In this document: in pieces, positions 9,040 to 64,000 of the stretch
Layout: every line of letters begins with the position of its first letter
How positions within the stretch are numbered: position 1 is the stretch's first letter
Source: a bacterium
GTDB taxonomy: Bacteria > Hinthialibacterota > Hinthialibacteria > H5-UNCL2
DNA length: 64,000 nt
Reading direction: 5' to 3'
NCBI GenBank assembly: GCA_015075175.1
Contig: JABTUV010000012.1
Location: 36,018 to 100,017 of the forward strand
Position numbers and translations under genes: made by a program
The notes under the pieces: generated by a model
What the model saw: the letters and a program-made list of their open reading frames with translations, nothing else
What the model was told of the DNA's origin: nothing
Database searches by the model: none

Positions 9040-9058
9040 GGCAGGGAATAGGACGTCG

Positions 9059-9089
9059 TATGGGACCTATGGGATCTATGGGTTGAGGT
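9059..9089. repeat. TATGGGACC-type short tandem repeat (3 units)
   Basis: gtatgggacctatgggatctatggg directly downstream of the pyrE stop; the same motif family forms an inverted-repeat structure at 28110-28215. Confidence 0.6.
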
Positions 9090-9164
9090 CGGTGAAGGAC
9101 GGTCCCGCGCGGCTTCCCGGTGATCGGACTCCGCGTTTTTTGCGTCTCTGCGCAGGCTCTCCCC

Positions 9165-10057: not shown

Positions 10058-10259
10058 GATCGCCCCCCGGACGGATAGTCTACACTTGGAAGACGGACGT
10101 GCGCCAGGGAATGTGACGGGATGGGCGGGATGAATTTTTGACGGGATAACGGGATGGACGGGACGAGAGGAGCCGAGGGAGGCGCGGGTAGCCGGGGCGG
10201 GGGCGGATCGCCAAGGCTGAGGGGGAGAGCACGTCCAGAAGGCGCATGGCGTTGGGCGT

Positions 10260-10721
<462 letters not shown>

Positions 10722-16845: not shown

Positions 16846-17250
16846 GTGACCAGAAACGTGGACAATCTGGGCATCGGCGCCTTGTACGGCAGTTTCAACG
16901 TGGAACTGTCGGAAGGCGAGCCGACCCTGACAACCAGCGACGTGGGCAAGGCGGTCGTCTTGTCCGACGACAACACCATCGGGATCGGGAGCGACGGCGA
17001 CCGGCTCCTCGGGCGGCTGGAGGCGATCGAGGACGAGTTGGCGACGGTGCAAGTGGCCGGCGTGGTGCGCCTGTCTCTGGCGGAGGGCAAGACGGCGCCG
17101 GACGTGGGCGACGGGGTGGTGGTGGACGGGGCGGGGGCGGCCTATCAGGCGCCTGCGCTGGGCGGCAACGATCCGGCGGGCGGCAACGTGGCGCGCGGCG
17201 TCACGCTGGCCGTCGATGCTACCGCGGGAACCGCGGACATTCTGCTGTAA
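16846..17250 (+). CDS. Gly/Val/Ala-rich small protein (DUF2190/head-decoration-like)
   Basis: 134 aa, GTG start with AGGAGG RBS; composition and position just upstream of the capsid gene resemble DUF2190/decoration proteins. Confidence 0.4.
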   Translation: MTRNVDNLGIGALYGSFNVELSEGEPTLTTSDVGKAVVLSDDNTIGIGSDGDRLLGRLEAIEDELATVQVAGVVRLSLAEGKTAPDVGDGVVVDGAGAAYQAPALGGNDPAGGNVARGVTLAVDATAGTADILL

Positions 17251-17265
17251 GGAGGCAAGACACAG

Positions 17266-18330
17266 ATGAACCACCACGCTTACGAACGGGGCGGGCTGCC
17301 GGCGGAGCTGGCGCGGGCGGCGGAGATCACGCTCTCTCCCGATCTTTACAGCCGGGCGCGCACGCGCGGGCTGTCTTTGTCCGGGCTGCTGGAGGAGCTG
17401 GACCCGAGCGGGCCGGGGGCGGCGCTGGACGCCTTCGAGCGCCAACTGGCGCTGGCCGGCATCCGCGTCGCCGGCCCCCAGGCCGACGCCATCGACCGCT
17501 TCTTTGCCAGCGCGGAGAACGCGGTGCTCTTCCCCGAGTACGTCTCGCGCGCGGTGCGCGCGGGCATGAGCGACTTCTCCAAGCTGGACAAGATCACGGC
17601 GACCCGCACCAAGATCGACGACGACACCTACCGCACTCTCTACATGGACGATTCCGTCTACGCGGAGGGCGAGCTCTCGCTGGCCCGTGTCTCGGAAGGC
17701 GCGGCCATGCCCAGGATCGAGATCAAGACCGCCGAGCATTCGATCACGCTGTCCAAGTACGGGCGCTACATCGAGACTACCTACGAAGCCATCCGGCGCA
17801 AGAAGGCGCCCGTGGTCGAGGTGTTTCTGCGCAGCATCGGGATGCAGATCCAGAAGGACAAGTTCCGCGAGGCGCTGTCCGTGCTCATCTCGGGGGACGG
17901 CAACGACAACGCCGCGCCGGTCGATCCCGTGGAGACCGACGAGACGCTGACCTACCCCGACCTCATCCAGTTTTCGCTGGCGTTCGCGCCCTACGAGTTG
18001 TCGGTGCTCGTCGCGGACGCGACCACGGCGGCCTTGATCCTCAACCTGGACGAGTTCAAGCATCCCGAGGTGGCCCGCGGTTTGCAGACGCGGGGCGAGA
18101 TGATCACGCCGCTGGGCGCGACGCTGATCGTGGACGACAGCGCTCCCGCCAACAAGATCGTGGGCCTGGACCGGCGCTTTGCGCTGGAGGAGGTCTACGA
18201 GACCGGCGTACTGATCGAGAGCGACCGGCTGATCCGCCAGCAGATCGAGGGCACGGCCATTTCAGAGGTCGCCGGCTTCGGCAAGCTGGTGACTTCGGCG
18301 TGCCGCGTGCTCAACCTGGACATCAGCTAG
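17266..18330 (+). CDS. HK97-fold phage major capsid protein
   Basis: 354 aa; E-loop-like segment PRIEIKTAEHSITLSKYGRYIETTYEAI and overall layout typical of the Phage_capsid family; flanked by portal-like and connector genes. Confidence 0.6.
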   Translation: MNHHAYERGGLPAELARAAEITLSPDLYSRARTRGLSLSGLLEELDPSGPGAALDAFERQLALAGIRVAGPQADAIDRFFASAENAVLFPEYVSRAVRAGMSDFSKLDKITATRTKIDDDTYRTLYMDDSVYAEGELSLARVSEGAAMPRIEIKTAEHSITLSKYGRYIETTYEAIRRKKAPVVEVFLRSIGMQIQKDKFREALSVLISGDGNDNAAPVDPVETDETLTYPDLIQFSLAFAPYELSVLVADATTAALILNLDEFKHPEVARGLQTRGEMITPLGATLIVDDSAPANKIVGLDRRFALEEVYETGVLIESDRLIRQQIEGTAISEVAGFGKLVTSACRVLNLDIS

Positions 18331-38566: not shown

Positions 38567-38721
38567 GAATGTTCATCCTCCATCGCCCCGTTGGGGGCAG
38601 CTCGAAGCTCTATTATGGCGCGGGTGGGCGGGGAGTGTCAATCGCCTTGCCGGTCCGATTTCCGCTTGACCGCTTCATGGCCCGCGTTCAACATGAGACC
38701 AACGTCGCAGGGGGAATCGCC

Positions 38722-39981
38722 ATGATCCGGCGCATCGAAGCGCTCGGTTATCGATGCCTGAGGTACCTGAGCCAGGACTTGGACCGATTCCAGGTTCTGG
38801 TAGGACCGAACGGTTCAGGCAAAAGCACGTTTCTCGACGTCGTGGGTTTTCTGAGTGATTTGGTCAATCACGGACCCGAGAAGGCGGTCGGTTTTCGCAC
38901 TGAGGATTATCACGACCTCGTGTGGGGGCGGGCGGGCGAACGTTGGGAGCTGGCGCTGGAATTGGAGATTCCCGCCGCCCGCCGGGCGCTCCTTGATGGG
39001 CAGGCGTTCGATCGCGTGCGATACGAAGCCGCCCTTGGCCTGGATGCGGCGACCGGCGCGTTGGCGATTCTCGCTGAAAAGGTCCTCCTGAAAGACAGCC
39101 GGCGGGAGCAGCGCATCCACGCGCCGGTTGAAACAACACTCTTTCCCGTAGTCCGAGAGCAGCCCGAGACCATCCTGACTACCAAGGTTGCCAAGAACAC
39201 CAAGACCGTGGTGAATAAAGTACCCGGCAGCAACGACAACTTCTACGACGAAACGGGAAGGGGCTGGGACCACGCCTTCAAGCTGGGCCCGCTGAAATCC
39301 GCGCTCGGGAACCTGCCGGACGATGAATCGAAGTTTCCCGTCTCCACCTGGCTGAAGGCGATGCTCTTGGACGGCGTGCAGCGCCTTACTTTGAATAGCG
39401 AGCTGATGCGCCGCCCCAGCCGCCCGGGACAACCGCGCCAGTTTCGCCCCGATGGTTCCAATCTGCCCTGGGTCGTCCACAAGCTGCGTCACGACGATCC
39501 GGTCCGATTTCACGAGTGGGTCCGCCACGTTCAGACGGCGCTGCCCGAGGTGAGCGACATCGATACCGAGGAGAGGGCCGAGGACCGCAGCCGCTATCTG
39601 GTGCTTCGCTACGGGCGGGAGCTGGCCGTGCCGTCCTGGGCCGTTTCAGACGGTACGCTGCGTCTCCTGGCACTCACGCTGCCCGCCTATCTGAAGAACC
39701 TTGAAGGCGTGTTCCTGATCGAAGAGCCGGAGAACGGCATTCATCCGCGCGCCGTCGAGACCATGCTGCAGTCGCTCTCCGCCGTCTACGATGCGCAGGT
39801 TCTTCTGGCGACCCATTCACCGGTTATTCTGAGCATGGCTGAACCGTCGCAGATTCTGTGTTTTTCCAGGACCGAGAGCGGCGTCGTGGACGTGGTGCGC
39901 GGGAACGAGCATCCCGCGCTGCGCGACTGGCGCCGCGAAACGAGCCTGGGAGTTCTGTTTGCCGGCGGAGTGCTGGGGTGA
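38722..39981 (+). CDS. AAA family ATPase (AAA_21/ABC-type, OLD/Abi-like)
   Basis: Walker A VLVGPNGSGKST near the N-terminus, Q-loop, Walker B-like FLIEEPENGIHP and LLATHSP near the C-terminus; an SMC/ABC-like ATPase with the Walker motifs split. Confidence 0.65.
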   Translation: MIRRIEALGYRCLRYLSQDLDRFQVLVGPNGSGKSTFLDVVGFLSDLVNHGPEKAVGFRTEDYHDLVWGRAGERWELALELEIPAARRALLDGQAFDRVRYEAALGLDAATGALAILAEKVLLKDSRREQRIHAPVETTLFPVVREQPETILTTKVAKNTKTVVNKVPGSNDNFYDETGRGWDHAFKLGPLKSALGNLPDDESKFPVSTWLKAMLLDGVQRLTLNSELMRRPSRPGQPRQFRPDGSNLPWVVHKLRHDDPVRFHEWVRHVQTALPEVSDIDTEERAEDRSRYLVLRYGRELAVPSWAVSDGTLRLLALTLPAYLKNLEGVFLIEEPENGIHPRAVETMLQSLSAVYDAQVLLATHSPVILSMAEPSQILCFSRTESGVVDVVRGNEHPALRDWRRETSLGVLFAGGVLG

Positions 39982-40637
39982 GTTACGCGATCGACCTGAT
40001 CGTCTTGACCGCCGACGGGCAGATTGAGGCCGCACTCAAGGGGATTCTCTGTCGCTGCGATTCCTTGAGGATCGCCAAGCCGCGTTGCGGGTTCTACCGC
40101 CATCCCTCGCACGATTCCGGATGCCTCCGTGAGGCGCATCTCTTCCTTGCGGCCCAATCGCGCCGAGCGGGCCATGCCTTGATCGTGTTCGACCGCCGCG
40201 GTTGCGGGCGCGAGGAGCTTGCGCGCGTAGAGCTGGAGCAGATGGTGGAGCGGAATCTTGCCGAAACGGGTTGGCGGGATCGATCCGCCGTGGTCGTGTT
40301 GGATCCCGAACTGGAAATCTGGGTTTGGAGTGACTCACCCGAGGTTGAGGCGTGCCTGGGTTGGGATCCGCCGACCGGGAATCTGCGCCGGCAGTTGCAG
40401 GCGCAAGGCCTTTGGGATCCCGACGGGCCGAAGCCCTCCCAACCCAAGGAAGCGTTGCTTTGGGCACTGCGTCAAGTGGATAAGAGGCCGTCAGCGGCCA
40501 TTTTTGAGGACCTAGCCCAACGCGTGTCATTCCGCCGGTGCAGCGACCCGGCTTTTCAGAAGCTTTGCGCGGTTCTGCGTAACTGGTTTCCCGACAGCGG
40601 AACGGCTTCATCAACGACGAAAGGGGTTTGTCCATGA
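39978..40637 (+). CDS. DUF4276-like small protein (partner of the ATPase)
   Basis: 219 aa, GTG start overlapping the ATPase stop (GTGA); N-terminal IDLIVLTADGQIEAAL resembles the DUF4276 start (conserved acidic residues in a TOPRIM-like beta-strand). Confidence 0.45.
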   Translation: MSYAIDLIVLTADGQIEAALKGILCRCDSLRIAKPRCGFYRHPSHDSGCLREAHLFLAAQSRRAGHALIVFDRRGCGREELARVELEQMVERNLAETGWRDRSAVVVLDPELEIWVWSDSPEVEACLGWDPPTGNLRRQLQAQGLWDPDGPKPSQPKEALLWALRQVDKRPSAAIFEDLAQRVSFRRCSDPAFQKLCAVLRNWFPDSGTASSTTKGVCP

Positions 40638-50271: not shown

Positions 50272-50347
50272 GCAGGAGTAGCTCAGTTGGTAGAGCTCCA
50301 CGTTGCCAACGTGGTTGTCGCGGGTTCGAGTCCCGTCTCCTGCTCCA
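50272..50347 (+). tRNA. tRNA-Gly (anticodon GCC)
   Basis: Cloverleaf folded by hand: acceptor GCAGGAG/CTCCTGC, D-arm GCTCAGTTGGTAGAGC, anticodon stem CCACG/CGTGG with loop TTGCCAA, T-arm GGGTTCGAGTCCCG, 3' CCA encoded. Confidence 0.9.
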
Positions 50348-50438
50348 TAAGTCTTCGAAAACCAACCACTTAGGTGACCGGCTTTTGCCGTGGGTTGTAA
50401 CCGTCAGGTCAATTGACCTGAGAATGGAGGTTTCGCCC

Positions 50439-51650
50439 ATGCGCATGCAAACGCCACGGACATCAGCTCCCCCTCTCTGCCACCACAAACCCAGCGGACG
50501 GGCACACGTCAACCTGGACAGCAGACGCCGCGTCTATCCGGGCAAGTTTGGCACCAAGCAAGCGAACGAGAACTACCGCCGCTTCATCGCGGAGTGGTCG
50601 GTCGGTGCTCACGATCATTGCGGCAAGCGCCGACTCCTGGTGCTGGACCTCATCGCCAGGTACCAGCAGTTCTGCCGGGAGCACTACCGGCAAGCGGACG
50701 GGACCGTGCTCCAAGAGGCGCAGGCGGTCCAGTACGCCTTGAAGCCGGTCCGAGAGCTGTACGCGGACCTGCCAGCGGAGCAGTTCGGGCCGCTGAAACT
50801 GAAGGCCGTCCGTGAAGCAATGATCGCTCGTGGGTGGAACCGCACTTACGTCAACCAGAAGGTGGGTCGCGTGAAGCGGATGTTCAAGTGGGCGACCGAG
50901 AACGAGCTGATACCGCCAGCGGTCTGGCACGGACTGCATGCTCTCGATGGGCTTCGAACCGGGCGCTGCCAAGTCCGCGAACCAAAGAAGGTCGCGCCCG
51001 TGGCAAACGAGCTCGTCGAAGCGACGAAGAAGCACGTCTCACGGCAGGTCGCGGCGCAGATCGATTTCTTGCTACTCACCGGCGCGCGTCCTTCGGAACT
51101 ACTCTCTTTGCGGCCGTGCGACATCGACCGCAGTGAGTCCGTCTGGCAATACCGCCCCCGAACGCGCAAAAACGCCCACCGTGGTCAGGACCGTGTGATC
51201 TACTTGGGGACCAATGCGCAGGCCGTCCTCAAGGAGTTTCTCCTGCGACCTGCGGAGGCCTTCCTCTTCAGTCCACGAGAGGCCGAAGCCGAACGCCACA
51301 CCCTGTCTCCTACGCACCGACGCGCCGACCAGAAACCGAACGTCAACGAGACAGGCAGAAGAGTGCGGGACAGATACGATGCACGATCCTTCTACCGGGC
51401 AATCCCTCGCGCGTGCGATGCAGCCTTTCCGCCTCCCGAGCACTTGGACGAAGAGGGGCTTGCCGCCTGGAGGGCGGCGCACCGCTGGTTCCCATACCAA
51501 CTCAGGCACAACGCCGCTACCTTGCTCGCGACGGAGTACGGAATCGAAGCCGCACAGACCATCCTGGGGCACAAGAAACTCGATGCGACCCAGATTTACG
51601 CGGAGCGGGACAGAGAGAAGGCGAAGAAGATCATCGCGAAGGTGGGATAG
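50439..51650 (+). mobile_element. tyrosine-type site-specific integrase adjacent to the tRNA-Gly 3' end
   Basis: C-terminal catalytic motifs LLLTGARPSELLSL (Arg box), HNAATLLATEYG...LGHKKLDATQIYAERD (H-x-x-R...Y); begins 92 bp after the tRNA. Confidence 0.85.
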
Positions 51651-52093
51651 GGCGGGGAAGTTCCGAGCTTCTTGGGTGAACAGTTCTGCGCGCACTCCTT
51701 GCGTTCGCGCGAGCGGTACGAGGTGGTGTCGAGAAGTCTGTCGCCACTTCCCGCTCCTGGGTCCGGTCGGACCCAAGCGCAACCGTCGCAGACACGATTT
51801 GTTTACTTGAAGATTTCGATAGACGCAAAACACAGTTAATGGCACAATACTTCCTACGAGCTGAGAATTTTGGCCGAAAAGATCGCAAGGGCCACCTGGC
51901 CCAAACTCAGAGAGGAGGTGAAAGGTTTTTCAGTTCGATGTTCTCTCCCGATAGTCGCTTTGCAATTAGACGAAGCTCGGGAGTGATTCCTGCATGATTC
52001 CACGCTGTCCAAACCCGGACAGCATTCATGAAGACGGCTCGGGCACCTAGCCACCCGACGCCACTCCAAATACCGACTGAGGAGTAGTTCTTC

Positions 52094-52372
52094 ATGGATA
52101 TCCATGACCCTTTCGAAACCGAGCGCAAGCTCGTTTTTCAAGATCTCACGAATATCCTAAACACTGGCCTAAACCGCCACCAGCCGCACTACTCGTACCA
52201 GATGCTCTGGAGGTGGGCGAGGCGCGGGGTCTGCGCACACAACGGTGAAAGAGTCCGCCTCGAACATGAGCGTCGGGGCGGACGACTATACACAAGCGTC
52301 GAAGCGATTCAGCGATTCGGCCAGAATCTGGCGGAGGCGGATACGGAGTACTTCGATGAGAGCGCCGGCTGA
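52094..52372 (+). CDS. DUF1580-like small DNA-binding protein (excisionase/regulator candidate)
   Basis: 92 aa; WRWARRGVCAHNGERVRLEHERRGGRLYTSVEAIQRF resembles the Planctomycete DUF1580 pattern; AT-rich upstream region. Confidence 0.4.
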   Translation: MDIHDPFETERKLVFQDLTNILNTGLNRHQPHYSYQMLWRWARRGVCAHNGERVRLEHERRGGRLYTSVEAIQRFGQNLAEADTEYFDESAG

Positions 52373-53480
52373 ATCGGCGGTAATCCGAAGCGCGGTCACG
52401 GTTACGGCCCTGACGGGCAAGCAGTCGGGCAACTACAACTTCTCCAATGAAGTGATCCCCAACGAGGCCGTGACCCTGACCCTCAACACGGCGGGAACCT
52501 CCGCGTCCGGCGCCCTGGCGGTGCACTCGGGCGGGGGCATCCGTCCGGGTACGGTCTCTATCGCGGTCACGTTCGACCTCTCGACCGCCTCTTCGAGCGT
52601 GGCGGGCACCCTGCAAGACAACGGGCAGGGCGGGCAGACCGCGCGGCGCACCGACACCGGCGCGGCCCTCACCGTCGCGGCGTCGGCCATCAACTGCATG
52701 ACGGGCGCGTTCTCCATCACCATCACGGGCGATGCGTTCGCGTCCGCATCGGCCACGGCCACCTATCGGGTCAATCTGGAGGGTTCCTCGGACATCCCCG
52801 AAGTGGACGTTCAGATCACCACGAGCACCGTGGAGACCGAGCGCCGCGCCATCAAGCTGCGCTACAGCCGTGAGGCTGCCGACGACGTGATGGCCGAGTG
52901 GGGATTCTCCCTCGAACCGACCATCATTCAGGGCATCGCCGCCCAGTGCATCGCGGAGATGTGGGTTTACGCGACCGTGGCCTCCACCTTCTCCATCACC
53001 CCCGGTTCGGGAGTGGCCTACAACCAGCAGGCTCACTTCGCGGACTTCATCTACAACTTGAACGTCGCCTCCAACGCCATCCAATTCGCCACGCGCATTG
53101 CGTATGGCAACTGGATCATCGTGGACCAGGGTGCGGCGAACGTGATCGAGTCCCTTCCGGGCACCATGTTCCAGGCGGCTCCGAGGCCGGAGTACGCGAT
53201 GGGTCTCCACTACATCGGACTCTTGATGGGCAAGTTCCGGGTGTACAAGTGGCTGTACCTGTCCGCCCTGCCGGGGGTCTCGGCCTATGGCAACTTGCTG
53301 ATGGGCTGGAAGGGAACCGAACCGTGGGACGCGGGCTTTGTGCTGGCTCCCCAACACCAGCTCTACACCACTGATCAAATCACGCTGGAAGGCTTTGTGA
53401 GCCGTCGTGGGTTCGCCACCCGCAACGCCACCAAGGTCATCAACCCGAACGTGTTTCGGAGGATCAACCTGTCGGCGTAA
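52356..53480 (+). CDS. phage major-capsid-like protein (stand-alone)
   Basis: Ser/Thr-rich N-half, E-loop-like ERRAIKLRYSREAADDVMAEWGFSLEPTIIQGIAAQ, HK97-like C-half; no other head genes nearby. Confidence 0.45.
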   Translation: MRAPAESAVIRSAVTVTALTGKQSGNYNFSNEVIPNEAVTLTLNTAGTSASGALAVHSGGGIRPGTVSIAVTFDLSTASSSVAGTLQDNGQGGQTARRTDTGAALTVAASAINCMTGAFSITITGDAFASASATATYRVNLEGSSDIPEVDVQITTSTVETERRAIKLRYSREAADDVMAEWGFSLEPTIIQGIAAQCIAEMWVYATVASTFSITPGSGVAYNQQAHFADFIYNLNVASNAIQFATRIAYGNWIIVDQGAANVIESLPGTMFQAAPRPEYAMGLHYIGLLMGKFRVYKWLYLSALPGVSAYGNLLMGWKGTEPWDAGFVLAPQHQLYTTDQITLEGFVSRRGFATRNATKVINPNVFRRINLSA

Positions 53481-53595
53481 TGACGCGGTGTCATTCGACA
53501 AGGACATGGTGGCATTCTTGGCGGAGTCGAGCCGGAGCGAGGCGCAAACCGCCGTCCGGTTGCGCTACTACCGCCAGAACCCGGAGGACGTGAAC

Positions 53596-54498
53596 ATGTT
53601 ATTCTTGGACGACGACCAGATGTGCGCACAGCTCACGACGGCGGAGCTGAACGAGGCCAGCCTGTCGCGGATTTTCTCGCACATGGGTTCTCAGCCGTTC
53701 GCCATCGTGTCCGCGCAGCGTGGAGACCGGATTACGGTCTCGAAGGACGCTACCCCCGCCGAGAAGGAACAGGCGGCCATTGCGAACACTGCGGCGAACA
53801 ACCAGATGCGCCAGTGGGCCGCGAGCGAAATCCGTTCCATCTTCAAGAAGAGCTTCATCAAGGTAATGGGGGCTTACCGGGAGAAGGGTGCGCCGGACGT
53901 GGACAGAGAGTACAGCTTCTTCCTCCCGAACGTGTCCCGTGAGGAGGCCCTGAAGCTGGCCCGGCACTTCACGTCCCACAAGACCTCCGGCGACCCTGAT
54001 AACATCTTCTGGGGCACGCCGGACAAGGAGGGTTTCTGGGTTTACGGGGACGGTCGCTTCAAGAAGATCGGCGACCGGATCACCACGTCCAACATGCCCA
54101 AGTACTACACCGAGTGGCGGTGGCGCAAGAACCGGAGCGCGGTGAATAAGCGCGCCGGGGCGCGCTTCACGTCCGTGGGGCGGCTTGGGATTACGGACAT
54201 CCGCGCGCGGGGCGAGTCCGAGTACGTTGCGCGTATCCGCTACATCCCCGAGTCCATCCACGAGTTCAAGAGCTGGATTATGGAGCTGGATAGCGTCATC
54301 GAGACGCGGGGAGCTGACACACAGTACGCGACCCGCTTTCGGGACGACGCGGGGGAGTTGACCATCAAGGCGGGCGACTACATCCGCTGGCGTACCTTGG
54401 CAGGCGACCCTCATTACGGCCCGATCAAGCAAATGGACGGCAACGTCGCCGTGATCGACTGCGAGGTGCACCACAAGGACTGCCCGTGCGAGTGCTGA
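53596..54498 (+). CDS. hypothetical island protein (C-terminal Cys motif HHKDCPCEC)
   Basis: ATG with GGAGG RBS inside track ORF 53407..54498; no family recognised. Confidence 0.4.
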   Translation: MLFLDDDQMCAQLTTAELNEASLSRIFSHMGSQPFAIVSAQRGDRITVSKDATPAEKEQAAIANTAANNQMRQWAASEIRSIFKKSFIKVMGAYREKGAPDVDREYSFFLPNVSREEALKLARHFTSHKTSGDPDNIFWGTPDKEGFWVYGDGRFKKIGDRITTSNMPKYYTEWRWRKNRSAVNKRAGARFTSVGRLGITDIRARGESEYVARIRYIPESIHEFKSWIMELDSVIETRGADTQYATRFRDDAGELTIKAGDYIRWRTLAGDPHYGPIKQMDGNVAVIDCEVHHKDCPCEC

Positions 54499-54645
54499 CG
54501 TGCGACCCGCCGCCGGTCAGACCTGGGTGGGCGCGACCCCCAAGACCGAGCGGCTCGTGGTGCGAGTGACGCGGCTGCACGACAGCCGCGCTTACTTTGA
54601 CCGGCTGGATGTTCGGGCGTTTGGTCGCATGGACTTGGAGGTAGC

Positions 54646-55257
54646 ATGACGCGCAAGGTGGACACCGCTGTCGTGCCGCAAGCCCGGATTGAGCGGGTCA
54701 TTCTCGTGGTTCGAGGAGTGAAGGTCATCCTTGACGCCGAACTGGCCGCGCTCTACGGGGTGCCGACCAAGCGCCTCAATGAGCAGGTCAAGCGCAACGC
54801 CGACCGCTTTCCGGAGGACTTCAGGTTCCGGCTCACCCGCGAGGAGCACGATGCGGTCCTGCGGCTGAGCTTGGAGGCGGAACCCGCGAACCGGTCACAA
54901 ATTGCGACCGCTCCGAACCGGTCGCAATTTGTGACCGATTCCCAAAAGCACCGCGATCCGCGCTACCTGCCCTGGGCCTTCACGGAGCACGAGACGATCA
55001 TGGCCGCGAACGTGCTCAACTCCCGGCGGGCGGTGGAAATGAGCGTCCACGTGGTGCGCACCTTCGTGCGCCTGCGGGAGGCGGCGGGGCGTTACGAAGA
55101 ACTCGCCCGACGCCTTCGCCAGGTCGAACAGCGCGTCGGGCAACACGACACCCATCTGGCCGGCATTCTGCGCGCGCTACGCCAATTGGCGGAAGCGCCC
55201 GAACCCAAACGCATCGGCAAGACCGGTTTTGCAGTCCCGGAGAAGAGATCGAAATGA
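54646..55257 (+). CDS. ORF6N (KilA-N-like) domain protein
   Basis: N-terminal ERVILVVRGVKVILDAELAALYGVPTKRLNEQVKRNADRFPEDFRFRLTREE matches the ORF6N DNA-binding domain; contains an internal tandem operator-like palindrome pair at 54887-54937. Confidence 0.6.
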   Translation: MTRKVDTAVVPQARIERVILVVRGVKVILDAELAALYGVPTKRLNEQVKRNADRFPEDFRFRLTREEHDAVLRLSLEAEPANRSQIATAPNRSQFVTDSQKHRDPRYLPWAFTEHETIMAANVLNSRRAVEMSVHVVRTFVRLREAAGRYEELARRLRQVEQRVGQHDTHLAGILRALRQLAEAPEPKRIGKTGFAVPEKRSK

Positions 55258-55559
55258 GCGAACGGAAAACCCGCCTTGAACTCACTTGGATCGGCAAGGA
55301 GAACCGGGCGAAGCTGGAGCCTCGGGTTTTGCTTGAGGACCCGGAGTTGTCGTATCATGCGGCGCGGCGAGTTTCGGATAAGGATATCTTCGACAACCGG
55401 CTCATCTTCGGCGATAACCTCTTGGCGCTCGAGGCGCTGGAGCAGGAGTTCGCCGGCACGGGCAAGTGCAATCGGAACGACCCGCCGTGCAACGCAGCCT
55501 CAGCTTTCGCCCACTACGCCGGGGGCCACGAATGTCACCATGACATTCTGGCAGAGTAA
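55254..55559 (+). pseudogene. N-terminal remnant of a type III (beta-class) DNA methyltransferase Mod; catalytic DPPY reads DPPC, then a premature stop
   Basis: LTWIGKE...RLIFGDNLLALEAL...GKCNRNDPPCN parallels the intact Mod at 61557 (RMILGDSLQVMASL...GKVQMIYLDPPYG) but ends after 101 aa. Confidence 0.55.
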
Positions 55560-55927
55560 TGCCACTATTGACAGAAGTGATGCTTGCGCTCACTCGGAAG
55601 GTCGGCCTGCGAGCTGAAGCTCCGAGGACGGTCCCCGACGCCACTACAACGCGCCGGGAAGCCCGGAAAAGCCACGATGTAAGGCCCCCTTGGGCGGCTA
55701 CGAAGCGAACCACGGCGACCGTCCTGGCGTGGCATCGTGACACTCTCTCCGGCTTGTGACACGATGACCTTCGATTGCGTCGCTTGAAAGGGGTCGGCAC
55801 TTCCGTCATACTGGTTGCCGCCGTTGACCCACGACCTGCTACACCGGACTGAAGACCATTGTTAAGTGGACCGTGCTAGAGTTCCAAGTTGGGAACCGCC
55901 GCGTCGATGTCTGAGTGAGGTTTGCCC

Positions 55928-58900
55928 GTGAAGCAAGTGGTGATCGAAAACCCCATCCTGAACTCCCCCTTCGAGGAGCCGTCCCGGCATTTCCGCTTCA
56001 CGGACGAGGGGATCACCGACGACATTGACGATGGCCGCCGCGAGAGCGCCTACTTCATCCCCGTCCCGCCGCCCAAGAAGAAGGGCCAGGCCGACACCCA
56101 GATGGCGCTGCCGGAAACGCACTGGACCAGGGACCGCCTCAAGCCCAACGACGACATCAATCGCATCCGCACGCATGTCGGCCTGTGGCGGCGGGCCGGC
56201 TACCGTGGCGTCACGGCGACCACGGCCAAGCTCCTGGCGCACTGGAACGACCCGACCCGCGAGCGGAAGCTCTTCTTTTGCCAGCGGGAGGCGGTCGAGA
56301 CCGTCATCTACCTGACCGAGATCGCCGAACGCGACCAGAACGTGTGGATTCTCAACCGGCTGCGGGACTACAACCGCGACGCCAACCCCGAGCTCTTCCG
56401 CATGGCCCTCAAGATCGCCACCGCCGGCGGCAAGACCACCGTGATGGCCATGCTCATCGCCTGGCACACGCTCAACAAGCAGGCCAACAAGCAGGACGCC
56501 CGCTTCTCGGATACGTTCCTCATCGTCACGCCCGGCATCACCATCCGCGACCGCCTGCGCGTGCTCTTGCCGTCCGACCCGGACAACTACTACCGCAAGT
56601 GGGACCTCGCGCCGCCCGACCTGATGCAGCAGCTCCTCCAAGCCAAGGTGCTCATCACCAACTTCCATGCCTTCAAGCTGCGCGAGAAGGTCTCCCTCAA
56701 CAAGACGGGCAAGGCCGTCATGCAGGGCACGGATGCCAAACCGCCCTCCTTCACCGAGACGCCCGACGAGATGGTCCGGCGCGTCTGCCGCGATCTCGGC
56801 AACAAGAAGAACATCGTCGTCATCAACGACGAAGCCCACCACTGCTACCGCCACAAACCGGACGGCGCAGAAGAAGTGCTCAAGGGTGAGGATCGCAAAG
56901 AGGCTCAGAAGCGCGAAGAAGCCGCCCGCATCTGGATTTCCGGCATCGAGGCGGTCAAGCGGAAGATCGGCGTGCGCATGGTGTACGACCTGTCGGCAAC
57001 CCCGTTCTTTCTGCGCGGATCGGGCTACCCGGAAGGCATGCTCTTCCCGTGGGTCGTCTCGGACTTCGCGCTGATCGACGCCATCGAGAGCGGCATCGTC
57101 AAGGTCCCTCGCGTGCCCGTCGCCGACGACTCCATGATCGGCGAGCAGCCCACCTATCGCGATCTCTGGTATCGCATCCGCGAGGGGCTGCCCAAGAAAG
57201 GCCGTGGGACCGAAGCCGTCGCCGGCGAGCCGGTCCTGCCGGCGGAGCTGGAGAGCGCGCTTCAAAGCCTGTACGCCAACTACAAGAAGCGCTTTACCGC
57301 CTGGCAGGCGAGCCGTGACGGCAACAACTCCCATTCCACGCCGCCCGTGTTCATCGTCGTCTGCAACAACACCAACGTGTCGAAGCTGGTCTTCGACTAC
57401 GTCTCTGGCTGGGAGAAGCCGCTCCCCGACGGCGACTCAGTCCTCGTCCCCGGCCACCTGGAGCTCTTCAGCAACGTCGAGAACGGCGCATGGTCCGCGC
57501 GGCCCAAGACCATCCTGATCGACTCCGAGCAGCTGGACTCCGGCGAGGCCATGAGCGACGAGTTCCGCAAGGTCGCCGCCGTCGAGATCGACGAGTTCAA
57601 GCGCGAGTACGCCTGGACCGCTTTCCCGGTCGGGACGTGGAGAAGATCGGCAGCGAAGACCTGCTCCGCGAAGTCATGAACACGGTCGGCAAGCCCGGCA
57701 AGTTGGGTGAGCAGGTCCGATGCGTGGTCAGCGTCTCGATGCTGACCGAAGGCTGGGACGCCAATACCGTCACGCACATCCTGGGCGTGCGCGCATTCGG
57801 TACGCAGCTCCTGTGCGAGCAGGTCGTCGGGCGGGCGCTCCGGCGCATCAGTTACGCCGCCAACGACGAGGGCAAGCTGGAGCCGGAGTACGCCGAAATC
57901 TACGGTGTGCCCTTCTCCTTCATCCCGTGCGCCGGCGCGCAGAAGGAACCGCCGCCCGGCCCCACGCCTACCCGCGTGCGCGCCCTGTCGGAGCGGATCG
58001 ATTGCGAGATCACCTTCCCGCGCCTGCAAGGCTACCGTTACGACTTCCACGACGCCGAGCTGCACGCCACGTTCACGCGCGATTCGCGCATGGCGCTCTC
58101 GACCGACGACGTACCCACCAAGGTCGAGAACGCCCCCATCGTCGGCGAGACCACCATCCACACCCTGGACGAGCTCAAGGCCCGCCGCCCGCAGGAGGTC
58201 GCCTTTCTCCTGGCCAAGCTCGTCCTGGAGCGGTACTTCCGCTGGGACGGCGTCGTGCAGCCGGAGAATAAGTCGGAGCACAAGTGGGAGGCCGGCGTCA
58301 AAGCCTGGCTCTTCCCCCAAGTGCTACGCATCGCCAAGGACTGGATGGCCGAATGCGTCGTCTGCAAGGACAACTGCTTCCCGCAGATGCTCCTGCTCCT
58401 GGAGTTTGCCCACGGCGCGGCCAACCGCATCTATCACGCCATCGTGCAAGGCGACCAGGGCGAGAAGACGCTCAAGCCGATCCTGTTTCCGTATGATCCC
58501 GAAGGCAGCACGCGCTACGTGGACTTCGACACCACGCGCCCGGTGTATTCGACGCGCCCCGACAAGTGCCACGTCTCGCACGTGGCCGCCGATACCAAGG
58601 ACTGGGAGCAGAAGGTCGCGCGCTCGCTGGAGGACATGGACGAGGTGGTCTGTTACGTGAAGAACCAGAACCTCGGCTTCAAGATTCCCTACGTCGCGAG
58701 CGGCGAGCCGAGGAACTACGTGCCCGATTACATCGTCCGCATCAATGACGGCGCGCCGGAGCCGCTCAACCTGATTATCGAGGTGACGGGTGAGAAGCGC
58801 CCGGACAAAGCGGAGAAGGTCGCCGCCGCCCGCGCGCTCTGGGTCCCCGCCGTCAACAACCACGGCGGATTCGGACGATGGGCGTTTTTGGAAGTGGACG

Positions 58901-58959
58901 ATCCGGCGAATGTGAAGAACGCGATCCGGGATTCCATACCGGCATTGAGCGAGGGATAG
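55928..58959 (+). CDS. type III restriction endonuclease Res subunit (DEAH helicase), split by one frameshift near 57630
   Basis: N-terminal VIENPILNSPFEEPSRHF, Walker A IATAGGKTTV, DEAH VINDEAHHC (frame of ORF 55922..57679). Motifs V-VI MLTEGWDANTVTHILGVRAF...QVVGRALRR are in ORF 57490..58959. Frames join at gctttcccggtcggg. Alternative TTG start at 55922. Confidence 0.6.
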
Positions 58960-58965
58960 CTGGCA

Positions 58966-59868
58966 ATGGTACCGACTCAGGGACAACTTCATTTGTTTGG
59001 CGGCGATTGGACCAAAGAGAAGCTGGAGCGCGTGCGACAATACCTCACGGCGTACACCAAGATCATGCGCAAGAAGGACTACCAGTTTGGATACATAGAC
59101 GCCTTTGCCGGAACGGGATACCTAGCCCTGAAGGATGCAAAGGCCGAGGCCAAGCGCTTATTTCCTGAACTGATGGAGACGGAAGCTCGTGATTTCGTCG
59201 AAGGGTCCGCCCACGTCGCCTTGGAGGTGGAACCGCCTTTCGAGAAGTACATCTTCATTGAGAAGCAGGGCTGCCGGTCGTCGGAGCTGCAACGACTACG
59301 CGACGAGTTTCCCGCCAAGGCCAACGACATCGTGATCGTGCAGGCCGAGGCCAACACCTACCTGCAAGACTTGTGTCGCAACCGCGTTTGGAAGAAGCAT
59401 CGTGCCGTCCTGTTCTTGGACCCATACGGAATGCAGGTGGAGTGGGAGACCATGAAGGCGATTGCCAAGACGCGCGCCATAGACCTCTGGCTCCTCTTCC
59501 CTTTGGGCGTGGCAGTAAACCGACTACTCCGTCGGGATGGGCTAATAGACGAGGGCTGGCGGCATCGCTTGGACCTCATGTTCGGGGATACGGGCTGGTT
59601 CTCGCGCTTCTACAATGTCGAGAACGAGCAGACCTTCTTCGGCCCGGAGCAGAAGGCAGTGAAGACGGCGGACGCCAAGGCGATTGGTCGCTACTTCGTC
59701 GAGCGGTTGCAGAGCGTGTTTCCCGGAGTCGCGAAGAATCCCCTGGCTTTGAGCAATACCAAGAACTGCCCCCTTTACCTGCTATGCTTTGCCACGGCGA
59801 ATCCAGACGCTGCGACCTTGGCAGTGAAGATTGCGCAAGCCATTCTCAGAGGGCCGAGGATACGCTAA
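58966..59868 (+). CDS. TcmP-like protein (three-Cys-motif partner protein family)
   Basis: 300 aa; overall similarity, from memory, to the TcmP family that pairs with DUF5131 (Gp37/Gp68) proteins; starts 7 nt after the Res stop. Confidence 0.5.
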
Positions 59869-60632
59869 TGGGCATGAAATCCTCCATCGAGTGGACCGAG
59901 TCCACTTGGAATCCGATAACGGGGTGCGACAAGGTCAGCCCCGGATGCAAGTTCTGTTACGCCGAGCGCATGGCCATGCGGCTCCAGGCAATGAGGCAGC
60001 CCAACTACCGCAATGGCTTTGCGCTGACCGTGCATGAGCACGCGCTGGAGCTCCCGCTCCGCTGGAAGCAGCCTCAGACGATCTTCGTCAACTCCATGTC
60101 GGACCTCTTCCACAAGGACGTACCGCTGGCGTTCATCCGCCGCGTCTTCGACGTAATGAAACGAGCACACTGGCATCGCTTCCAAATCCTGACCAAGCGC
60201 TCGGAGCGGCTCTTCATGCTGCGGAGCAAGATCGAATGGCCGCCCAACGTCTGGATGGGCGTCAGCGTCGAGACCGCGCACTACGCGGAACGAATCGACC
60301 ACCTGCGCAAGGTCCCCGCCGCGATCCGCTTCCTCTCGCTGGAGCCGCTGCTCGGGCCGCTGCCGGGTCTCGACCTGTCGGGAATCGATTGGGTGATCGT
60401 TGGCGGGGAGTCCGGGCCGGGCGCGCGTCCGATGGATGAAGCATGGGTGCTCGACATCCGCGACCAGTGCGAAGCCGCCGGCGTTCCCTTCTTCTTCAAG
60501 CAATGGGGCGGTGTCAACAAGAAGAAGGCGGGGCGACTACTGGAGGGCCGGACGTGGGATGGGATGCCGCTCCGCTTCCAGTCCGAGACGCCGATTCCGT
60601 CTGAGGACCTCGCCGCGGCTGAGCGAAGTTAA
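59868..60632 (+). CDS. phage Gp37/Gp68-family three-Cys-motif protein (DUF5131)
   Basis: N-terminal [30 protein letters not shown] (C-x5-C-x2-C), typical of DUF5131; start overlaps the TcmP stop (TAATG). Confidence 0.6.
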
Positions 60633-60664
60633 CCACACGATTTGTATCGAGGGGACGCTCACAA

Positions 60665-61546
60665 ATGGGAGGGAGAGCAGTGAATGACAATTCCCAGCAT
60701 ACCAGCACACAGAGGAGCCACGAACCGCTGGTGGGCTTCGTCAACCTTGCGCGGGCGCTACTGCTGCTTGGTATTGTGAGTTTTCTTGGCGTTGCCGGCC
60801 TTCTCTTGTTGACACATCCGTCCGTCAACTTCTCACTCAAACAACGCCTCATGCGCCAGGAGGAGGAAGCGCGCGCCGTCAGGGAAGAGCTGGCGCGGTT
60901 AACCGCGGAAAGTGAGAAGGCGACTGCCGCGGAAAAAGAGAAACGGCTGCGCCAATGGAAATACGACTTGTTCTCCGACGTTGACGTAAGGGAAGATAGC
61001 TATCCCATTGTGGTGCTGCGCAGTGGGTTCAAGGTCATTCGCTTGGGGACGGACCACTCGTTAGTTGGATGGAAATACGAGCTGATTAACACGTCACCGA
61101 AGACCACGTATGTCGCCAATGTGACCTTTACGCTTCAGGATGCCGATGGCTTCGACATCGATTCCGGCGTAGGGGAGGCGGCGATTCCGGCAGAGCGATA
61201 CGGCGTAGTCACTGGAACTATCAACGTCGACAACGTAGATGTCGAGCGGCTTTCGGATTCCAGCTGGGCGATTGGGCTGAAGCCTAACTGGAAGGAAAAC
61301 GAGCGCCAAACCCCCGGAACTCGGGACTCGCGACTCACAAAACTAGCGAAATCCCAGATGCCTCTGTGGGTCTATGAGCTTGCGAAACTGGAATACATGG
61401 GCATTTCCGCGAAATGGAAGGCGATTCAGGTCGGCCTTGGAATCGAGTTACCGGCGAACCCCCCAGATGCACCCGCGGGGGCAACCCCGGAGTCCGATTC
61501 CAAGCCGGGCGCAACTGCTCCAGTCAGTGAGACTACTGCCAAGTAA
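60665..61546 (+). CDS. membrane-anchored hypothetical protein
   Basis: 293 aa; N-terminal TM helix LLLLGIVSFLGVAGLLLL, coiled-coil segment, C-terminal beta-rich domain; alternative GTG start at 60680 with GGGAGGGA RBS. Confidence 0.4.
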   Translation: MGGRAVNDNSQHTSTQRSHEPLVGFVNLARALLLLGIVSFLGVAGLLLLTHPSVNFSLKQRLMRQEEEARAVREELARLTAESEKATAAEKEKRLRQWKYDLFSDVDVREDSYPIVVLRSGFKVIRLGTDHSLVGWKYELINTSPKTTYVANVTFTLQDADGFDIDSGVGEAAIPAERYGVVTGTINVDNVDVERLSDSSWAIGLKPNWKENERQTPGTRDSRLTKLAKSQMPLWVYELAKLEYMGISAKWKAIQVGLGIELPANPPDAPAGATPESDSKPGATAPVSETTAK

Positions 61547-61556
61547 AGGACTGCTC

Positions 61557-64000
61557 ATGGTCAGACGCAAGAGTAACGCGAAGACCCCCGCCTCCATCCC
61601 TGTGGAGGCCCATACGCACAAGGACAAGCGCAAGAATATCCCCACGCGAGAGCTGCGGGATTTCGTCGAGGATGAGGAAAAATCCCCCAAGACGCTGCTC
61701 TATCCGCGCGATCCGTCGCTGGACCCGCAGCTGGTCTGGAAGGGGAAGGATGAGCAGGACGCCGCCGACCTCGTAGTGGTCGCGCCGCCGATTTACATTC
61801 AGGAGAAAATCCATCCGCAGGCCATCGTCGAGGACATCCGCGCCTCGGCCAGGAGCGCCGGGCGGGAGCGGCAGATGGATTTGTTCGCCGACTTCAACGG
61901 CCTCTCCTTCGAGCAGAAGATCGAGTTCTACCAGCACGACGCGCATTGGTCCAACCGCATGATCCTCGGCGACTCACTCCAGGTCATGGCGTCGCTGGCG
62001 GAGAAAGAGGCGTTGCGCGGCAAGGTGCAGATGATCTACCTCGACCCGCCCTACGGCATCAAGTTCGGCTCCAACTGGCAGGTGAGCACCCGCAAGCGCG
62101 ACGTGAAGGACGGCAAGGCGGAAGACGCCACGCGCCAGCCGGAACAGATTCGCGCCTTCCGCGATACGTGGAAGCTCGGCATCCACAGCTACCTCGCCTA
62201 TCTCCGCGACCGCCTTACCGTCGCCCGTGATCTCCTGACCGAGTCCGGCAGCATCTTCGTCCAGATGAACTCGGAAAACGTTCACTTAGTGCGATCATTG
62301 CTCGACGAGGTGTTTGGCTCCGAAAACTTTGTTGCCGACATTGTCTTTAGAAAGAAGAGCCTGCCTCTTGGCGCGAAGTATCTGGAGACGATGCACGATC
62401 ACGTACTCTTTTATGCCCGAGATGTAAACTTTCTCAAGTTTCGCCACTTCTACGAGCGAGGTGGCGTCGAGATCGTCGGCGGTCATGGACCATACGCGCT
62501 GTACCCTGACGGTAGTCATGAACGCATATCTGAAGATGAGTTTGAGTCGTCAGAGCATCCCGAAGGGACGCGGTACTACTGCCTGTTCGCTCTCCTTGCG
62601 CCCTCATTTTCCGCAAATACTGTGTATCAATATCGAGTTGACGGACGCGATTTCGACTCGCCTAACAACGGTTCATGGGTGGTTACGTCGAGTAAGCTTG
62701 ATGTGTTGAAATGCGCTGACCGCCTGGAGCCGGAGGGCAAGAATCTCCGATACCGGCTCATGTATGACGACTTTCCTTATCGAAAGGGAACGAACATATG
62801 GGTAGATACACAGGCCGCCTTCAAGAAGTCCTACGTCGTGCAGACCAGCACGAAAATCATTGAACGCTGTCTCCTCATGACCACCGATCCCGGCGACTTG
62901 GTGCTCGATCCGACGTGCGGGAGTGGGACGACTGCCTACGTGGCCGAGCAGTGGGGGCGGCGCTGGATCACCATTGATACGAGCCGCGTCGCGCTGGCGC
63001 TGGCGCGCACCCGCCTGATGGCCGCCCGCTTTCCGTACTACCTCCTCGCCGACACGCGCGAAGGCATGGAGAAGGAAGCCGAGCTCTCCGGCCAGCCGAT
63101 GCCCGACATTTCCCCGCAAGGCGATCTCAAGAAGGGCTTCGTCTATCGCCGCGTGCCGCACGTAACGCTGAAGTCCATCGCCAACAACGCGGAGATTGAT
63201 GAAATCCACGCCCGCTGGCAGAAGCAGCTGGAGCCGCTCCGCGCCAAGCTCAACAAGGCCGCCCGCGAGAAATGGGAGGAGTGGGAAATCCCGCGCGAGC
63301 CGGGCGAGAAGTGGAGCGCCGAGGCCAAGTCGCTACACGGTGAGTGGTGGAAGTTGCGCCGCCGGCGCCAAGCCGAGATTGACGCCTCCATCGCCCGCCG
63401 CGCCGAAACGGAGACGCTCTACGACCAGCCGCTCGACGACAAGAAGCGCGTGCGCGTGACCGGCCCCTTCACCGTCGAGAGCCTGTCGCCGCATCGCGTG
63501 CTTTCCACCGACGGGGAGATGCCCCGGAGCGAACGCAGCGGCGAGACGGAGAAGTCGGGCCGCTACGAGAGCGTGATCCTTGAGAACCTGAAGGCGTCCG
63601 GCGTGCAGAACCAGACCAAGACGGAGCGCCTGAAGTTCGACCGCCTGGAGCCGCTGGCCGGCACGTGGTTGCAGGCTGCCGGCGAATACACCGAGAACGG
63701 CAAGTCGCGCCGCGTGGCGGTCGCGCTTGGACCCGAGCATGGGACGGTCGGCCCGGATCTCGTCAAGGAAGCGGCCAAGGAAGCGGTCCTCGGCGTGGGC
63801 TACGATCTATTGCTCGTCTGCGGCTTCGCCTTTGATCCGCACGTGTCGGAAGAGACGAAACGCTACGGCAAGCTGACCATCCTTCCGGTGCGCATGAACC
63901 CGGACCTGTCGATGGGCGACGAGCTGCTCAAGAAGACGGGATCGGCGAACCTGTTCATGGTCTTCGGCGAACCGGACGTGATAGTGAGCAGTGGGCCGTG
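61557..64000 (+). CDS. type III restriction-modification Mod subunit / N6-adenine (beta-class) DNA methyltransferase, partial; ORF runs off the window
   Basis: Open frame from ATG 61557 (RBS AAAGGA) to the window end with no stop (the track omits edge-truncated ORFs). Motif IV IYLDPPYG precedes motif I VLDPTCGSGTTAYVA, the beta-class order; long C-terminal extension. Confidence 0.7.
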   Translation, partial: MVRRKSNAKTPASIPVEAHTHKDKRKNIPTRELRDFVEDEEKSPKTLLYPRDPSLDPQLVWKGKDEQDAADLVVVAPPIYIQEKIHPQAIVEDIRASARSAGRERQMDLFADFNGLSFEQKIEFYQHDAHWSNRMILGDSLQVMASLAEKEALRGKVQMIYLDPPYGIKFGSNWQVSTRKRDVKDGKAEDATRQPEQIRAFRDTWKLGIHSYLAYLRDRLTVARDLLTESGSIFVQMNSENVHLVRSLLDEVFGSENFVADIVFRKKSLPLGAKYLETMHDHVLFYARDVNFLKFRHFYERGGVEIVGGHGPYALYPDGSHERISEDEFESSEHPEGTRYYCLFALLAPSFSANTVYQYRVDGRDFDSPNNGSWVVTSSKLDVLKCADRLEPEGKNLRYRLMYDDFPYRKGTNIWVDTQAAFKKSYVVQTSTKIIERCLLMTTDPGDLVLDPTCGSGTTAYVAEQWGRRWITIDTSRVALALARTRLMAARFPYYLLADTREGMEKEAELSGQPMPDISPQGDLKKGFVYRRVPHVTLKSIANNAEIDEIHARWQKQLEPLRAKLNKAAREKWEEWEIPREPGEKWSAEAKSLHGEWWKLRRRRQAEIDASIARRAETETLYDQPLDDKKRVRVTGPFTVESLSPHRVLSTDGEMPRSERSGETEKSGRYESVILENLKASGVQNQTKTERLKFDRLEPLAGTWLQAAGEYTENGKSRRVAVALGPEHGTVGPDLVKEAAKEAVLGVGYDLLLVCGFAFDPHVSEETKRYGKLTILPVRMNPDLSMGDELLKKTGSANLFMVFGEPDVIVSSGP

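Follow-up and report, generated by a model that had tools for sequence, protein, structure and literature searches.

The 64-kb window analysed in this study, a stretch of contig JABTUV010000012.1 from a bacterium of the Hinthialibacterota, contains a pair of adjacent genes on the plus strand that encode an ABC ATPase and a small Toprim-fold protein, related to MAD3 and MAD4, two components of the methylation-associated defence system (MADS). The first open reading frame (ORF A, 38722-39981) started with ATG and encoded 419 amino acids (aa), and the second (ORF B, 39978-40637) started with GTG and encoded 219 aa, as had been read from the DNA in an earlier sequence-only reading. The start codon of the small gene overlapped the stop codon of the ATPase gene in the tetranucleotide GTGA at 39978-39981, which couples the translation of both genes. 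A GGAG sequence was located at 39967-39970, 7 nucleotides (nt) 5' of the GTG start of the small gene, and a Shine-Dalgarno-like GGGGGA was located at 38710-38715, 6 nt ahead of the ATG of the ATPase gene. The chosen starts of both ORFs were supported because the homologues start at equivalent residues, and the longer, mechanically listed starts at 38569 and 39858 were dismissed on the same ground. The overlap was scored in 82 sequences: the related loci described below, the window itself, and two further entries that were duplicates or references. In 57 of them a start codon gave a 4-nt overlap and in 6 a 1-nt overlap, so that 63 of the 82 showed one of the two arrangements.

The product of ORF A was assigned to the MAD3-type ABC ATPases from the results of NCBIfam, PADLOC, Pfam and an AlphaFold2 (AF2) model. 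It matched the NCBIfam equivalog NF047739 (antiphage_MADS3) over the full length with 506.7 bits, above the cut-off of 420, and the canonical MAD3 of L083, a reference MADS operon, scored 547.5 bits on the same model. The top PADLOC models were HEC-01A (PDLC04182, 4.9e-43, and PDLC04184, 1.8e-42, both near full length), and mad3 was matched at 7.7e-30. The Pfam matches were AAA_21 (1.3e-28) and AAA_15 (3.1e-13). An ABC/SMC-like ATPase with Walker A near the N-terminus and Walker B and D-loop near the C-terminus had been expected from the sequence, and these motifs were found in the expected places. The Walker A motif or P-loop, GPNGSGKS, covered residues 28-35 (38803-38826, like all features of the pair on the plus strand), and its residues G28, P29, N30, S32, G33 and K34 were invariant in 33 homologues. 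The ABC signature or C-loop, SDGTLR (residues 309-314, 39646-39663), was invariant in the same set. The Walker B and D-loop region, GVFLIEEPENGIHP (residues 329-342, 39706-39747), had the core FLIEEPENGIHP at residues 331-342, and G329, E334, E335, P336, E337, N338, G339, H341 and P342 were invariant. This stretch was also the part that aligned to PtuA, OLD and AriA in the sequence search of solved structures. The H-loop, ATHSP, was located at residues 363-367, with H365 (39814-39816) at least 90% conserved. All catalytic motifs of an ABC ATPase are thus intact in the first gene. The matches of ORF A to RecF and the SMC N-terminal domain were weak, covered the P-loop only, and fell far under the cut-offs.

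In addition to the catalytic motifs, the ATPase contained an insert at about residues 160-212 (NKVPGSNDNFYDETGRGWDHAFKLGP...LPDDESKFP, 39199-39357) that was conserved within the clade of close relatives and not in the canonical MAD3 of L083. The residues invariant in the clade included N165, K166, N171, D172, N173, F174, E177, W182, F186, L198, P199, D201 and E202. From this pattern of conservation, the insert is a candidate sensor or partner-binding surface. The AF2 model of the ATPase had a pLDDT score (predicted local distance difference test) of 82.2, and its best match among solved structures was PtuA of the Septu and retron effectors (7.8e-13), with GajA and the heads of SMC proteins lower. 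Sequence searches of the solved structures showed no close relative of either protein of the pair.

The product of ORF B was identified as a MAD4-type, DUF4276-related putative nuclease with a Toprim fold from NCBIfam, PADLOC and its AF2 model. It scored 201.7 bits against the NCBIfam equivalog NF047734 (antiphage_MADS4, cut-off 160; canonical MAD4 of L083, 233.2 bits), and its sole PADLOC match was mad4 (8.1e-05). The resemblance of its N-terminus to DUF4276 that had been proposed from the sequence held at the family level, where 11 of 32 small-protein family members matched PF14103 weakly (best 3.5e-5), but not for ORF B alone, which had no Pfam match at E≤1, DUF4276 (PF14103) included, and fell short of the gathering score of that family. 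Canonical Mad4 was assigned to DUF4276 with an HHpred probability of 99.78% (MADS preprint, supplementary notes, 10.1101/2023.03.30.534895), and both DUF4276/Mad4 and RloB were assigned to the Toprim superfamily (PMC12065111). The AF2 model of ORF B had a pLDDT of 92.6. The only PDB structures that it matched at E≤1e-3 were those of Xanthomonas campestris OLD, in its C-terminal Toprim catalytic region (6njw, 6njv and 6njx; E 1.7e-4 to 4.3e-4; template modelling (TM) score 0.46-0.51). In a library of viral structures, the top match was an RloB-like protein, with DnaG-type primases further down. Both results agreed with the TOPRIM- or nuclease-like partner suspected in the sequence-only reading. 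A search with the MAD4 profile against the sequences of solved structures returned nothing meaningful.

The conserved acidic residues of ORF B were located at the ends of the β-strands in the model. D13 (40014-40016), in the motif DLIVLxAD at the end of strand 1, was at least 90% conserved in 32 homologues; judging from the model, it would occupy the position of the Toprim glutamate and may be catalytic. D46 (40113-40115), in the motif hDsGC after strand 2, and D72 (40191-40193), in the motif FDRxGCG at the end of strand 3, were invariant in the same homologues and are predicted to bind metal. The segment DPELE (D109-E113, 40302-40316) followed strand 4 directly and was itself followed by WVWSDS; P110, E111 and E113 were invariant, D109 was at least 90% conserved, and the segment is a candidate metal-binding acidic cluster. 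D13, D46, D72 and DPELE were all kept in the canonical MAD4 of L083, which is only 31% identical to ORF B. The protein of the second gene combines a Toprim fold with a conserved cluster of acidic residues.

Relatives of the pair were collected with a motif-based scan that covered 185,579 species, with one genome each, and yielded 216 relatives of the small protein; the best 80 of these 216 were taken with 10-kb flanks as the related loci. The pattern scanned for, E[IAV]WVWSDS, is specific to the clade of the window pair, and canonical MAD4 reads ELENWLWQGDN; the result that none of the 80 loci belonged to a MADS therefore holds for this clade and not for MAD3/4 in general. The hosts were Planctomycetota, Acidobacteriota, Chloroflexota, Nitrospinota, large sulfur bacteria and others, together with one metagenome-assembled genome (MAG) of Bathyarchaeia. 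A profile search of 1.84 billion cluster representatives gave 1,692 members. Reference-free clustering of the ORFs in the 80 loci showed that the ATPase gene adjoined the small gene in every locus where the contig allowed it, and it was the only gene kept beside the small gene in all loci. This pairing is far beyond chance, and the recurrence in prokaryotes that the sequence-only reading had stated was borne out. The two genes always lie side by side and are coupled in translation.

The surroundings of the pair differed from locus to locus, and no core synteny extended across a phylum. In 6 of the 80 loci the neighbours were a DUF1156 methylase and a DUF499 ATPase, and the pair lay between HmaB and HmaC of Hma systems; one of them (L023) read HmaA, HmaB, the pair, HmaC in PADLOC. 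Another 6 loci had leuB upstream and a short-chain dehydrogenase/reductase (SDR) gene downstream, and 5 had an FKBP isomerase gene as a neighbour. The remaining 58 loci had between them 105 immediate neighbours, which matched 137 Pfam families, none of which occurred in more than 3 proteins. Many of these neighbours were core genes, such as those for tRNA synthetases, ThiC, SecA, RNase E/G and glutamine synthetase, and a few were ResIII, DEAD or N6_N4_Mtase genes. Apart from the six loci inside Hma, the pairs lay among unrelated and mostly housekeeping genes. The closest relative (L088) shared 82% and 66% identity with the window in the two proteins and had ClpP-like and aconitase genes upstream in common with it and different genes downstream. 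In a neighbour-joining tree of the concatenated pair, which was built without bootstrap and is indicative only, the canonical MADS pair lay on a long branch outside a star-like clade, the copies embedded in Hma were scattered within the clade, and the gyrB group and the FKBP group were each monophyletic.

One of the known systems closest to the pair is MADS, an eight-gene operon (mad1-8) described in Pseudomonas aeruginosa SMC4386, for which the MacSyFinder model takes MAD6-8 as mandatory within 10 genes and MAD3/4 as accessory (Maestri et al., 10.1101/2023.03.30.534895). Deletion of mad3 or mad4 each abolished MADS defence, and mad5, which encodes the specificity subunit, could not be deleted unless mad2 or mad3 was removed as well (10.1101/2023.03.30.534895), which implies that MAD3 is needed for a toxic activity. 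The operon L083 on a Piscinibacter gummiphilus plasmid, in which all eight proteins passed the NCBIfam MADS1-8 cut-offs, was used as the reference, and its proteins served as tblastn queries. The window resembled this verified operon in the order and sizes of the two genes, in the 4-nt overlap, and in the ATPase motifs and MAD4 acidic residues, and both of its proteins lay above the MADS3 and MADS4 equivalog cut-offs. However, identity to the canonical pair was only 35% for MAD3 and 31% for MAD4, the conserved ATPase insert of the window clade was not shared, and the other six mad genes were absent from the window and the 80 related loci: MAD1, 2, 5, 6, 7 and 8 gave no tblastn match in the window, MAD2, 5, 7 and 8 gave none in any of the 80 loci, and MAD6 gave only generic kinase matches, far away. 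Membership in a full MADS was rejected since the mandatory MAD6, MAD7 and MAD8, the N6-methyltransferase MAD2 and the specificity subunit MAD5 were not found in the 64 kb. The locus is a MAD3-MAD4 sub-module and not a MADS.

The naming of such solo pairs was inconsistent with their surroundings in two further loci. NCBI names the orphan ATPases of L084 (10001-11877) and L086 (7391-9258) [quoted passage not shown], and no other MADS gene was present near either of them. One of these orphans, from Moorella sp. Hama-1, was located beside a type III-like restriction-modification (RM) system, transposases and HicAB, and the other stood alone between HpaB and CobU. The MADS equivalog models over-reach for solo pairs.

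The locus was also similar to HEC-01 (Hma-embedded candidate 01), which pairs an ABC ATPase with a TOPRIM protein (Payne et al., 10.1101/2024.01.29.577857; PADLOC-DB). Both have an ABC ATPase with a separate Toprim protein, the best PADLOC matches of the window ATPase were HEC-01A, and the 6 relatives between HmaB and HmaC were placed exactly as described for HEC-01. In contrast, the window copy was not embedded in Hma, although embedding was the mode of discovery and is not needed for detection, and no HEC-01B model matched the small protein, yet the Toprim fold was seen in its model. The PADLOC model PDLC04144, labelled HEC-01B, matched the ATPase (2e-22, profile length 395) instead of the Toprim protein, and did so likewise in L023 and L083; its label or model content looks inconsistent. 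The PADLOC check proposed with the sequence-only reading thus returned HEC-01A and mad3 for the ATPase and mad4 for the small protein. The locus is of an already catalogued kind, as MAD3/MAD4 in NCBIfam and as mad3/mad4 and HEC-01A in PADLOC.

Likeness to OLD, PARIS and AbiL had been suggested from the architecture, and it stood for the PtuA/GajA-type fold of the ATPase and the OLD-like Toprim fold of its partner. The OLD family (P2 Old in class 1 and GajA of Gabija in class 2) combines an ABC ATPase with a Toprim nuclease, and the window ATPase matched the models of Old and GajA as well as the OLD structure 6p74. An identity with OLD was rejected because the window has two separate ORFs with the GTGA overlap instead of one polypeptide; among the relatives, a single fused copy (L006) was found, which is possibly an assembly artefact. 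The Toprim motif of the window also differed from that of OLD, being based on Asp and DPELE instead of E...DxD, the TM score was only about 0.5, and no UvrD-like partner was present. PARIS (the ABC ATPase AriA with the DUF4435 Toprim protein AriB) likewise has two genes for an ATPase and a separate Toprim effector, and offers the best-understood working model, in which an ATPase scaffold senses the trigger and frees the Toprim nuclease (PMC11464382). The AriA models and structures were matched via the AAA_21 core only, the partner in the window is related to DUF4276 and had no DUF4435/AriB match in Pfam or PADLOC, and PARIS is often borne by phages or satellites, whereas no relatives of the window pair were found in viral collections. 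Septu PtuA/PtuB and the retron-associated PtuAB are also two-gene pairs of an ATPase and a nuclease, and gave the best structural and sequence match of the ATPase among solved structures; however, the PtuB nuclease is HNH and not Toprim, and the TM score of about 0.4-0.5 indicates similarity at the fold level only. In Menshen, NsnB/NsnC variants carry DUF4276 C-terminal domains, and ABC ATPases occur with DUF4276 or RloB Toprim effectors (PMC12065111). The window ATPase matched NsnB at 9.7e-13, but Menshen is a three-gene system with NsnA, and no such partner was present at the locus. AbiL was rejected because AbiLi was matched only partially (8.2e-18) via the shared ATPase core and the small protein had no AbiLii match.

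An analysis of the base composition revealed that both genes were outliers in the window. The GC content at third codon positions (GC3) was 0.755 for the ATPase gene (z=-3.5) and 0.700 for the small gene (z=-5.3), compared with 0.856 ± 0.029 for 20 surrounding genes. Because of this composition and the taxonomically patchy family, the pair is a horizontally acquired accessory unit and not core.

The locus is best explained as a free-standing two-gene MAD3/MAD4 (HEC-01-like) module, a split OLD-type ATPase-nuclease, and our analysis suggests that it is probably an autonomous defence or abortive-infection system. Its association with defence was seen in the 6 of 80 related loci inside Hma, in the canonical MADS L083, which carries a 31-35% identical pair, and in the Moorella copy, which abuts the type III-like RM system. 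By analogy with OLD, Gabija and PARIS, the ATPase would bind the Toprim nuclease and hold it inactive. The clade-specific insert of the ATPase might sense a sign of infection, for example a protein of the phage or nucleic acid that is foreign or damaged, and ATP binding or hydrolysis would license or release the nuclease. The nuclease could then cut nucleic acid of the invader or the host, either DNA, the target in OLD and Gabija, or tRNA, the target in PARIS, with destruction of the invader or abortive infection as the outcome. The same cassette may plug into the larger methylation-based systems MADS and Hma or work alone. In a more specific version, which we offer tentatively and rate at somewhat below an even chance, the free-standing clade would be a self-sufficient defence system, a split OLD-like nuclease with its own ATPase sensor in the insert (about residues 160-212); this already existing cassette would have been captured repeatedly by MADS and Hma as an effector or back-up, and the orphans would act independently of methylation.

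Several results weigh against an autonomous defence function. Autonomy is the main doubt, because the one representative of HEC-01 that was tested, in E. coli, gave no protection from any phage used (10.1101/2024.01.29.577857). MADS uses the pair together with six other genes, which does not imply that it can act alone. The nuclease activity, the substrate and the trigger of the pair are all inferred, and the Toprim motif is non-canonical, with Asp in place of Glu and no clear DxD, compared with the textbook E...DxD. Most neighbours of the related pairs were housekeeping genes and not defence islands. No relative was found in 2.9 million viral contigs (IMG/VR) or in 50,697 phage genomes (INPHARED), and 72,556 plasmids contained only two full-length ATPase matches and one partial match; of the full-length matches, one was a canonical MADS and the other an ATPase without MAD4. 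A search for flanking direct or inverted repeats as the boundaries of a mobile element around the pair found none that were significant. Owing to this scarcity in viruses and plasmids and to the lack of such boundaries, the usual mobility signatures of small defence systems are weak here.

The doubt about autonomy leads to the rival explanation that survives best, namely that the pair works as an effector or accessory sub-module only in concert with a methylation system (Hma, MADS or RM) elsewhere in the genome, or is what remains of one. Members of the family act jointly with the other genes of MADS and occur embedded in Hma, HEC-01 alone gave no defence in E. coli (10.1101/2024.01.29.577857), and the Moorella copy directly follows an RM system. 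The window itself contains ResIII and N6_N4_Mtase genes 15-21 kb downstream of the pair; the latter is its only methylase gene. These genes are not part of the operon of the pair, however, and lie beyond pheT inside a separate integrative element with a tRNA-Gly gene and an integrase. No homologue of MAD2, 5, 7 or 8 accompanied the pair in the window or the 80 loci, and outside the six Hma loci no methyltransferase recurred, with N6_N4 methylases making up 2 of the 105 immediate neighbours in the 58 loci. Both genes were intact with all motifs conserved and hence were not decaying remnants, and the scattering of the Hma-embedded copies in the tree suggests repeated capture of a self-contained cassette. 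Dependence on a methylation system in trans is unlikely. Less probable again, at a low level, is a selfish addiction module of the toxin-antitoxin kind, in which a Toprim toxin restrained by the ATPase is kept for its own persistence. Such a module would fit the compact, coupled two-gene operon, the patchy, horizontally transferred distribution and atypical composition, the MAD3-dependent lethality upon mad5 deletion in MADS (10.1101/2023.03.30.534895), and the PIN/HTH toxin-antitoxin pairs that neighbour the pair in two related loci. It would not fit the near absence of the pair from plasmids and its absence from phages, where addiction modules thrive, or its stable synteny within lineages (the gyrB, leuB and FKBP groups, and the window compared with L088), and the "AbiEii toxin" label of AAA_21 in Pfam is a family description and not evidence. 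A housekeeping factor for DNA repair or maintenance native to the lineage, with a RecF-, SbcCD- or RecN-like ABC ATPase and a Toprim partner, is very improbable: chromosomal core genes surround the pair here and in most relatives, it directly follows dnaA-dnaN-gyrB in four Planctomycetota loci, and weak RecF and SMC N-terminal matches exist, but these are confined to the P-loop far below the cut-offs, the scan of 185,579 species genomes gave no more than 216 relatives, which are spread over many phyla and include one archaeon, the GC3 of both genes lies far outside that of their surroundings, all of the best family matches are to defence families, and neighbours are not conserved across loci, with shared synteny only in small lineage groups (gyrB in 4 loci, leuB in 6 and FKBP in 5).

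The pairing of an ABC ATPase with a Toprim protein, as in OLD, Gabija and PARIS, is a recurring design in prokaryotic immunity, and the MAD3/MAD4 version has so far been studied only within the eight-gene MADS. The window locus and its 80 relatives form a large clade in which the same pair stands alone among housekeeping genes or is slotted into Hma. This clade is mostly solo, has its own conserved ATPase insert, and is automatically annotated as "methylation-associated" without a methylation partner nearby. If the solo pairs defend by themselves, MADS and Hma would be modular systems that took up an effector already in existence, the pair would offer a compact new ATP-gated nuclease for study, and the label of methylation-associated defence that orphan pairs now receive automatically would have to be qualified. 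Otherwise, the pairs would mark genomes in which a trans-acting partner should be sought.

The pair was an isolated unit between housekeeping genes, as had been read from the sequence. Upstream, on the opposite strand, was a gene of the Aconitase family (leuC-like), and downstream was an alginate lyase gene (PF05426, 2.4e-90) with a signal-peptide-like N-terminus; the near neighbours thus comprised the aconitase, a ClpP-like protein recognised by homology with L088, the alginate lyase and a GAF-HD protein. The intergenic region between the divergent leuC-like gene on the minus strand and the ATPase gene (38567-38721, read from the sequence) presumably holds the promoter of the pair. The sole sigma-70-like site in this region ran from 38641 to 38612 on the minus strand with 11 of 12 matches and would serve the leuC-like gene. 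No sigma-70 consensus promoter beyond the shuffle expectation was found on the plus strand upstream of the pair, no convincing terminator exceeded that expectation at the locus, and a search of Rfam for regulatory RNA gave no match above noise. At the other end, the stop codon of the small gene overlapped an ATG of the alginate lyase ORF in the sequence ATGA at 40634-40637. When started at this overlap, the lyase had a signal-peptide-like N-terminus (MSRNQRWPRFWLCCGLALVWA...), and the public gene call begins further in, at 40766. Co-transcription of the lyase with the pair is therefore possible. The linkage of the two was not kept in L088.

Further downstream, an integrative-looking stretch was found at 50272-63998. 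It began with the tRNA-Gly gene (50272-50347) and a phage-type integrase gene (50385-51650), which were followed by a gene for a Gp23-like major capsid protein (52245-53480) and an ORF6N gene (54646-55257). An ORF of 101 aa (55254-55559) resembled the N-terminus of a type III methyltransferase and had no Pfam match. The ResIII gene was located at 55922-57679, and the gene of the N6_N4 DNA methylase (61374-63998) ran off the window. The stretch looks like an integrative element with a partly degraded type III-like RM system. On the other side of the pair, a Phage_capsid_4 gene (17266-18330) and a small upstream ORF lay at 16846-18330 among cellular-looking genes, and this locus may be a prophage remnant or an encapsulin-like locus.

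Unusual arrangements were observed among the relatives. In the four Planctomycetota loci L006, L018, L021 and L040 (about 2700-10600), dnaA-dnaN-gyrB lay directly upstream, and the gap between gyrB and the ATPase gene was only 1-4 nt. This cluster in the origin region is the usual place of recF, another ABC ATPase, in other bacteria. In L006 (8726-10609), a Planctomycetota MAG, the ATPase and Toprim genes formed one ORF of 628 aa, an OLD-like fusion that could equally be the artefact of a single indel at the 4-nt overlap, and the name of the MAG suggests a long-read assembly. On plasmid pGSUB1 of Geoalkalibacter subterraneus (L082, 15001-20042), a MAD3-like ATPase of 33% identity occurred without a MAD4 partner. 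After it came genes for an Eco57I-type methylase, a NERD nuclease and another methyltransferase, and the set may represent a different combination of ATPase and nuclease resembling HEC-02.

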